From NCBI RefSeq assembly GCF_003334385.1, contig NZ_QOWN01000003.1: 64,000 nt of DNA; one strand, given 5' to 3'. Positions 23,789 to 23,882 of the stretch are shown piece after piece. Both the position numbers and the translations under genes were made by a program. The DNA is from Escherichia coli (GTDB lineage Bacteria > Pseudomonadota > Gammaproteobacteria > Enterobacterales > Enterobacteriaceae). How positions within the stretch are numbered: the first letter of the stretch is position 1; the number at the start of each line of letters is the position of its first letter. The notes below the pieces were generated by a model that saw only the letters and a list, made by a program, of their open reading frames with translations, had not been told where the DNA came from and did not search any database.

Positions 23789-23804
23789 GATAAAACGTTT
23801 TATC
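23789..23804. promoter_or_regulatory. Perfect 16-bp palindrome GATAAAACGTTTTATC in the malX-malI divergent region (MalI operator candidate)
   Basis: Palindrome read directly; MalI (LacI family) is known to bind palindromic operators in this intergenic region. Confidence 0.7.
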
Positions 23805-23867
23805 AAATTTTAGTGAGGCATAAATCACATTACGCAACGATAATAGCGGGTATAAGATAAATAAAAG

Positions 23868-23882
23868 GTAAAACGTTTTATC
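23868..23882. promoter_or_regulatory. Second MalI-operator-like site GTAAAACGTTTTATC
   Basis: Near-copy of the palindrome at 23789, 31 nt upstream of the malI start. Confidence 0.65.

Follow-up and report, generated by a model that had tools for sequence, protein, structure and literature searches.

The 64,000-nucleotide stretch of Escherichia coli DNA analysed here, hereafter the window, carries a repressor gene and its target operon, transcribed divergently from a shared control region. The repressor gene, malI (23913..24941, plus strand), is annotated in RefSeq and belongs to NCBIfam family NF007449, a LacI/GalR-family repressor. On the other side, malX (22146-23738, minus strand; RefSeq, and NCBIfam PTS maltose IICB at 1119 bits) is followed by malY (20964-22136, minus strand; RefSeq, and the NCBIfam PatB-family C-S lyase), and the two form the malX-malY operon, the repressed target, at 20964..23738 on the minus strand (RefSeq and NCBIfam). 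A record that is 100% identical has the gene order add, malY and malX leftward and malI, hdhA, uidR and uidA rightward. The divergent malX and malI genes named in the original prediction, which was made from the letters alone, are therefore those that NCBIfam finds and that RefSeq annotates in identical E. coli DNA. The two genes are separated by a 174-bp spacer on the E. coli chromosome, and both sites described below lie inside it.

MalI is full length, matching NF007449 over residues 1–342 with 669.2 bits against a cut-off of 310; its second-best NCBIfam match is RbsR. Pfam places a LacI helix-turn-helix domain (PF00356) at residues 8–53 and a Peripla_BP_1 domain (PF00532) at residues 65–341. 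The alignment of MalI with LacI stops at residue 325 of the 360 in LacI, and MalI is only 342 amino acids long; it therefore lacks the LacI-type C-terminal tetramerisation segment.

Of 5,426 complete genomes of E. coli, 5,414 match a 451-bp segment around the sites at 95% identity or more, nearly always in a single copy. The K-12 derivative XL1-Blue is 100% identical over the 121 bp that span both sites (23775-23895), and published K-12 results therefore carry over directly. The region is missing or diverged in 12–29 of the 5,426 genomes, and one copy is plasmid-borne rather than chromosomal. One strain, E. coli FDAARGOS_1249 (NZ_CP069459.1, positions 3139-4633, corresponding to approximately 23757-25050 of the window), has the order malX, IS4, hdhA. 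There the match to the window ends at 23757, an IS4 transposase gene sits directly upstream of malX, and malI is missing together with both operators: the repressor gene and the control region next to it have been naturally deleted.

The malX-proximal operator, hereafter O_X, occupies 23789..23804 and reads GATAAAACGTTTTATC, a perfect 16-bp palindrome with CG in its centre, found exactly where it had been predicted. The malI-proximal operator, O_I, occupies 23867..23882 and reads GGTAAAACGTTTTATC. It had been proposed as the 15-mer GTAAAACGTTTTATC, which is located at 23868-23882; extended to 16 nucleotides, it is the same palindrome with one mismatch, at position 2. Both sites have the core AAAACGTTTT at the dyad. 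The separation of 64 bp given for them is roughly right, as it is the difference between 23868 and 23804; strictly, 62–63 nucleotides lie between the two sites, and the distance is 78 bp from start to start and likewise from centre to centre. The centres lie upstream of the start codons, that of O_X 58.5 bp from the malX ATG and that of O_I 38.5 bp from the malI ATG, both within the distance to the gene that is typical of LacI/GalR operators (PMC4052901).

Such sites are rare in the surrounding DNA. A pattern search of the 64-kb window that allowed up to 3 mismatches returned 3 matches, compared with a mean of 0.31 in 100 dinucleotide-preserving shuffles, none of which (0/100) reached 3. The matches at 23789, 23867 and 40193 carry 0, 1 and 3 mismatches, respectively, and at up to 2 mismatches the window holds no operator match beyond O_X and O_I. 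The central AAACGTTT likewise occurs in the window at O_X and O_I only. A repeat finder recovers the pair as an 18-nucleotide direct repeat, AAG[A/G]TAAAACGTTTTATC, with a start-to-start distance of 78 bp. Two further candidates were set aside. The long inverted repeat I1 (23788-23802 with 23869-23883) is a mere by-product of one palindrome occurring twice and not a separate feature. The third match, GATAAACAGTTTTTTC at 40193-40208, is a chance match rather than a third operator: it has 3 mismatches and no central CG, and it overlaps the start of a minus-strand open reading frame (38909-40210).

MalI was described as a GalR/LacI-family repressor in work from the Busby laboratory in 2017 (PMC5543585), in which the MalI DNA site carried by primers D71689 and D71690 (Additional file 3) is GATAAAACGTTTTATC. 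This published site is exactly identical to window positions 23789-23804. In vivo, a MalI:mCherry fusion forms foci on an array of 20 such sites (MalO) and forms none without the array (PMC5543585). The predicted role of the palindromes, as MalI operators for autoregulation and for repression of malXY, is borne out by the identity of O_X with the published site and is independently supported by the orthologue conservation described below; we found nothing in the published MalI data that places MalI binding elsewhere in the spacer. In an independent study, a metC deletion strain acquired loss-of-function malI mutations in the course of adaptive evolution, and the authors hypothesised that these mutations raise malY expression. 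The sites, the repressor and their roles are already known, the descriptions for E. coli K-12 dating from 2010 or earlier, and MalI sites have since come into use as a fluorescent reporter-operator tool.

A search with the MalI protein against one genome per species gave 80 loci, with MalI identities of 69%–100%, in at least 16 genera: Escherichia, Citrobacter, Salmonella (arizonae), Leclercia, Pseudescherichia, Silvania, Enterobacter, Lelliottia, Pseudenterobacter, Klebsiella, Kluyvera, Trabulsiella, Huaxiibacter, Pseudocitrobacter, Raoultella and Superficieibacter. A malX orthologue with 85–99% amino-acid identity lies divergently beside malI at each of the 80, and every time the spacer between the two genes contains exactly two operator matches with 2 mismatches or fewer. 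Across the 541,682 bases of these loci, the spacers hold 160 such matches and the sequence outside the spacers none.

The alignment of the 79 distinct spacers gives a mean column identity of 0.968 for O_X and 0.966 for O_I. By the same measure the remaining spacer, with the CRP site left aside, reaches 0.657, and the first 30 bases of the malX or malI coding sequence about 0.85. The most conserved 16-nucleotide windows of the spacer fall on, or within a few bases of, O_X and O_I. The operator consensus across orthologues is GATAAAACGTTTTA[T/C]C, in which the G and C at the two ends hardly vary; the C and G at the centre (columns 23796-23797 in O_X and 23874-23875 in O_I) are invariant in 79/79 spacers. 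Substitutions in both operators are concentrated at positions 2 and 15, which correspond by symmetry, a pattern that suggests that the base 7 from the centre may contribute little to recognition by MalI. In most other genera O_I is itself a perfect palindrome, and the G at position 2 in E. coli is a minority variant.

The arrangement is conserved along with the sites. The operators are 79 bp apart in 74 of the 79 distinct spacers and 78 bp apart in the other 5, which belong to the Escherichia clade, and this single-base difference sits just after TATAA[A/G] (window 23856-23867). No indel was found in any genus between O_X and the TATAA element among these spacers. Three Citrobacter loci (L007, L008 and L009) carry a 23-bp insertion between O_I and the malI start (CTACCTGGCGAAGGCTTGGGTAA in L007), which lengthens the leader and leaves the operators unaffected.

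Between O_X and O_I lies a CRP-like site at 23811..23832, with the core TGAGG-N6-TCACA at 23814-23829 and its centre at 23821/23822. This core is the sole match in the spacer to TGTGA-N6-TCACA at 2 mismatches or fewer. It falls in a conserved block, 23809-23829, that reads TTTAGTG.G ... AAATCACA, in which T14, G15, G17 and TCACA are invariant over the 79 distinct spacers. Both malI and malX were listed as CRP targets by SELEX, and the pair was classed under ‘different CRP molecules’ (Shimada 2011, PMC3105977). That class finds no support in the spacer, where a single CRP-like site is conserved. We infer that this site would act as one class II site shared by the two promoters.

On either side of it is a candidate −10 hexamer. 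The one for malX, TATCTT (23787..23792, minus strand), overlaps the left half of O_X; every orthologue has its complement AAGATA (23787-23792) unchanged, even in the two bases that lie outside the palindrome. The one for malI, TATAAG (23851..23856, plus strand), is 10 nucleotides upstream of O_I and reads TATAAA in most genera, with TATAA conserved in 77–78 of the 79 distinct spacers; TAAGAT at 23853-23858 is an alternative candidate. Each of the −10-like hexamers starts 29.5 bp from the CRP centre, a class II geometry that would put CRP at −41.5 relative to malX, and on these grounds TATCTT and TATAAG are the putative −10 elements of malX and malI. This geometry would account for the lack of drift in the distances. 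A generic scan found no sigma-70 promoter and no terminator in 23650-24000; for activator-dependent promoters that are without a −35 element such an outcome is expected, and it is no evidence against promoters here. The SMRT-Cappable-seq supplements hold no transcript-start entry for the malX-malI locus.

This geometry can be set beside the positions given for K-12. In 2008 a single CRP site was reportedly placed at −41.5 for malX and −43.5 for malI, and in 2010 the malX operator is said to have been mapped to −24 to −9 and the malI operator to +3 to +18. Taken together, these positions fit the sequence: they put the malX start at 23780 on the minus strand, the malI start at 23865 on the plus strand and the CRP centre at 23821/23822, exactly where the one CRP-like match of the spacer is centred. 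If TATAAG is the malI −10 element, the malI start, 7 nucleotides beyond it, would be near 23863 and O_I would span approximately +5 to +20, not +3 to +18. Either way O_I would lie inside the polymerase footprint, and autorepression would follow.

We are highly confident that O_X and O_I are the two operators of MalI in the control region between the divergent E. coli malX and malI genes. The sites exist, match the operator pattern beyond chance, include the published site and keep their spacing; that MalI binds and represses at them comes from the literature, and their exact positions relative to the transcript starts, together with occlusion as the mechanism, are as deduced or reported above. 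Most likely a MalI dimer sits on each 16-bp palindrome, with the central CG at the dyad. At O_X, which would overlap the −10 region of a CRP-dependent malXY promoter, bound MalI would exclude RNA polymerase. At O_I, which would lie just downstream of the malI start and within the polymerase footprint, it would repress its own gene. The single CRP site at 23821/23822 would serve both promoters, and the two operators would act independently of one another, with no DNA loop.

Independent action has to be weighed against joint action, in which MalI bound at both sites would loop the DNA or join a CRP dimer, in the manner of GalR or of CytR with CRP, such that each promoter needs both sites. The strictly kept spacing (78–79 bp in 79 distinct spacers, with O_X-to-TATAA free of indels) would suit such a complex, as would the position of the CRP-like site between O_X and O_I. 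The same spacing, however, amounts to 7.4–7.5 helical turns, which therefore puts O_X and O_I on opposite faces of the DNA, and a half-integral number of turns is unfavourable for looping. MalI also lacks the LacI-type tetramerisation tail, and the two MalI dimers are probably not joined by a loop. The fixed distance has a simpler explanation in that each operator is tied to a −10 element 29.5 bp from the shared CRP centre. Moreover, each operator was reportedly found, in the 2010 work, to be dispensable for repression of the other promoter and to act on its own promoter only. We therefore regard joint action as improbable. Equally slim is the chance that the 78/79-bp spacing reflects more than promoter geometry, with a MalI dimer on each face of the DNA and the CRP-bent stretch between them making up a defined repression complex; the operators would then be not fully independent in vivo, or would be unequally occupied, with malI and malXY derepressed at different inducer levels.

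A second question is whether the palindromes might chiefly be the target not of MalI but of Cra, RbsR, PurR or some other LacI-family regulator with a AAACGTTT core. Several LacI-family motifs share the central AAACGTTT: the predicted consensus of the bifidobacterial RbsR2 and RbsR3 is TGATAAAACGTTTTATCA, TAAAACGTTTTA in the Enterobacter scrAB promoter has been discussed as a Cra-like box, and RbsR is the family that MalI itself matches second best. Against this, the sites adjoin malI in 80/80 loci and are absent from 541 kb of flanks. The Cra, PurR and RbsR boxes of E. coli have other flanking bases at positions 5 to 8 from the centre. O_X is itself identical to the published MalI site, an array of which is bound in vivo by MalI:mCherry (PMC5543585), which leaves another principal regulator very improbable. 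Still fainter is the prospect that the palindromes act as nucleic-acid structure, as a leader RNA hairpin or a DNA cruciform, rather than as protein sites. Both 16-mers are self-complementary and O_I would be transcribed into the malI leader; yet the predicted hairpins of the 16-mers are very weak (−0.9 and −1.5 kcal/mol), O_X would stay untranscribed if, as the promoter geometry suggests, it is upstream of the malX start, and 23650-24000 holds no terminator-like site. Across the orthologues it is the sequence itself that is preserved, not the pairing: compensatory changes are absent, and the substitutions at positions 2 and 15 disrupt base pairs. Sites for MalI, one at each promoter, remain by far the best reading of the pair.

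As a discovery the finding carries little weight, although it does show that true operators can be picked out from the letters alone; its modest addition is the conservation across genera and the spacing. The operators, the CRP-like site and the −10-like elements, together with the distances between them, have stayed fixed in at least 16 genera of enterobacteria, and the comparison indicates that the whole control region is under strong constraint as one unit.

The arrangement does not differ from that of the MalI operators of E. coli K-12 (Lloyd et al. 2008, FEMS Microbiol Lett 288:250; Lloyd, Godfrey & Busby 2010, 305:28) used in the MalO array (PMC5543585): the locus is the same, as is the 16-bp GATAAAACGTTTTATC, with one site per promoter. 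Among LacI/GalR-family operators, which are even-length palindromes of 16–22 bp (PMC4052901), both sites are typical in their even length and in the central CG at the dyad, and they are also linked to their cognate regulator, with malI adjacent and both sites co-occurring in 80/80 loci. They are distinguished from the operators of PurR, RbsR, Cra and GalR and from the cre sites of CcpA by the outer, specificity-determining bases, here GATA...TATC. In contrast to the auxiliary-operator looping of LacI and GalR, the malX-malI region has two separate single operators, one per promoter. Its promoters resemble divergent pairs that share a single CRP site (the model of El-Robh & Busby 2002; examples in PMC3105977) in having one conserved CRP-like site with a −10-like hexamer 29.5 bp to each side, except that here each promoter also bears its own repressor operator.
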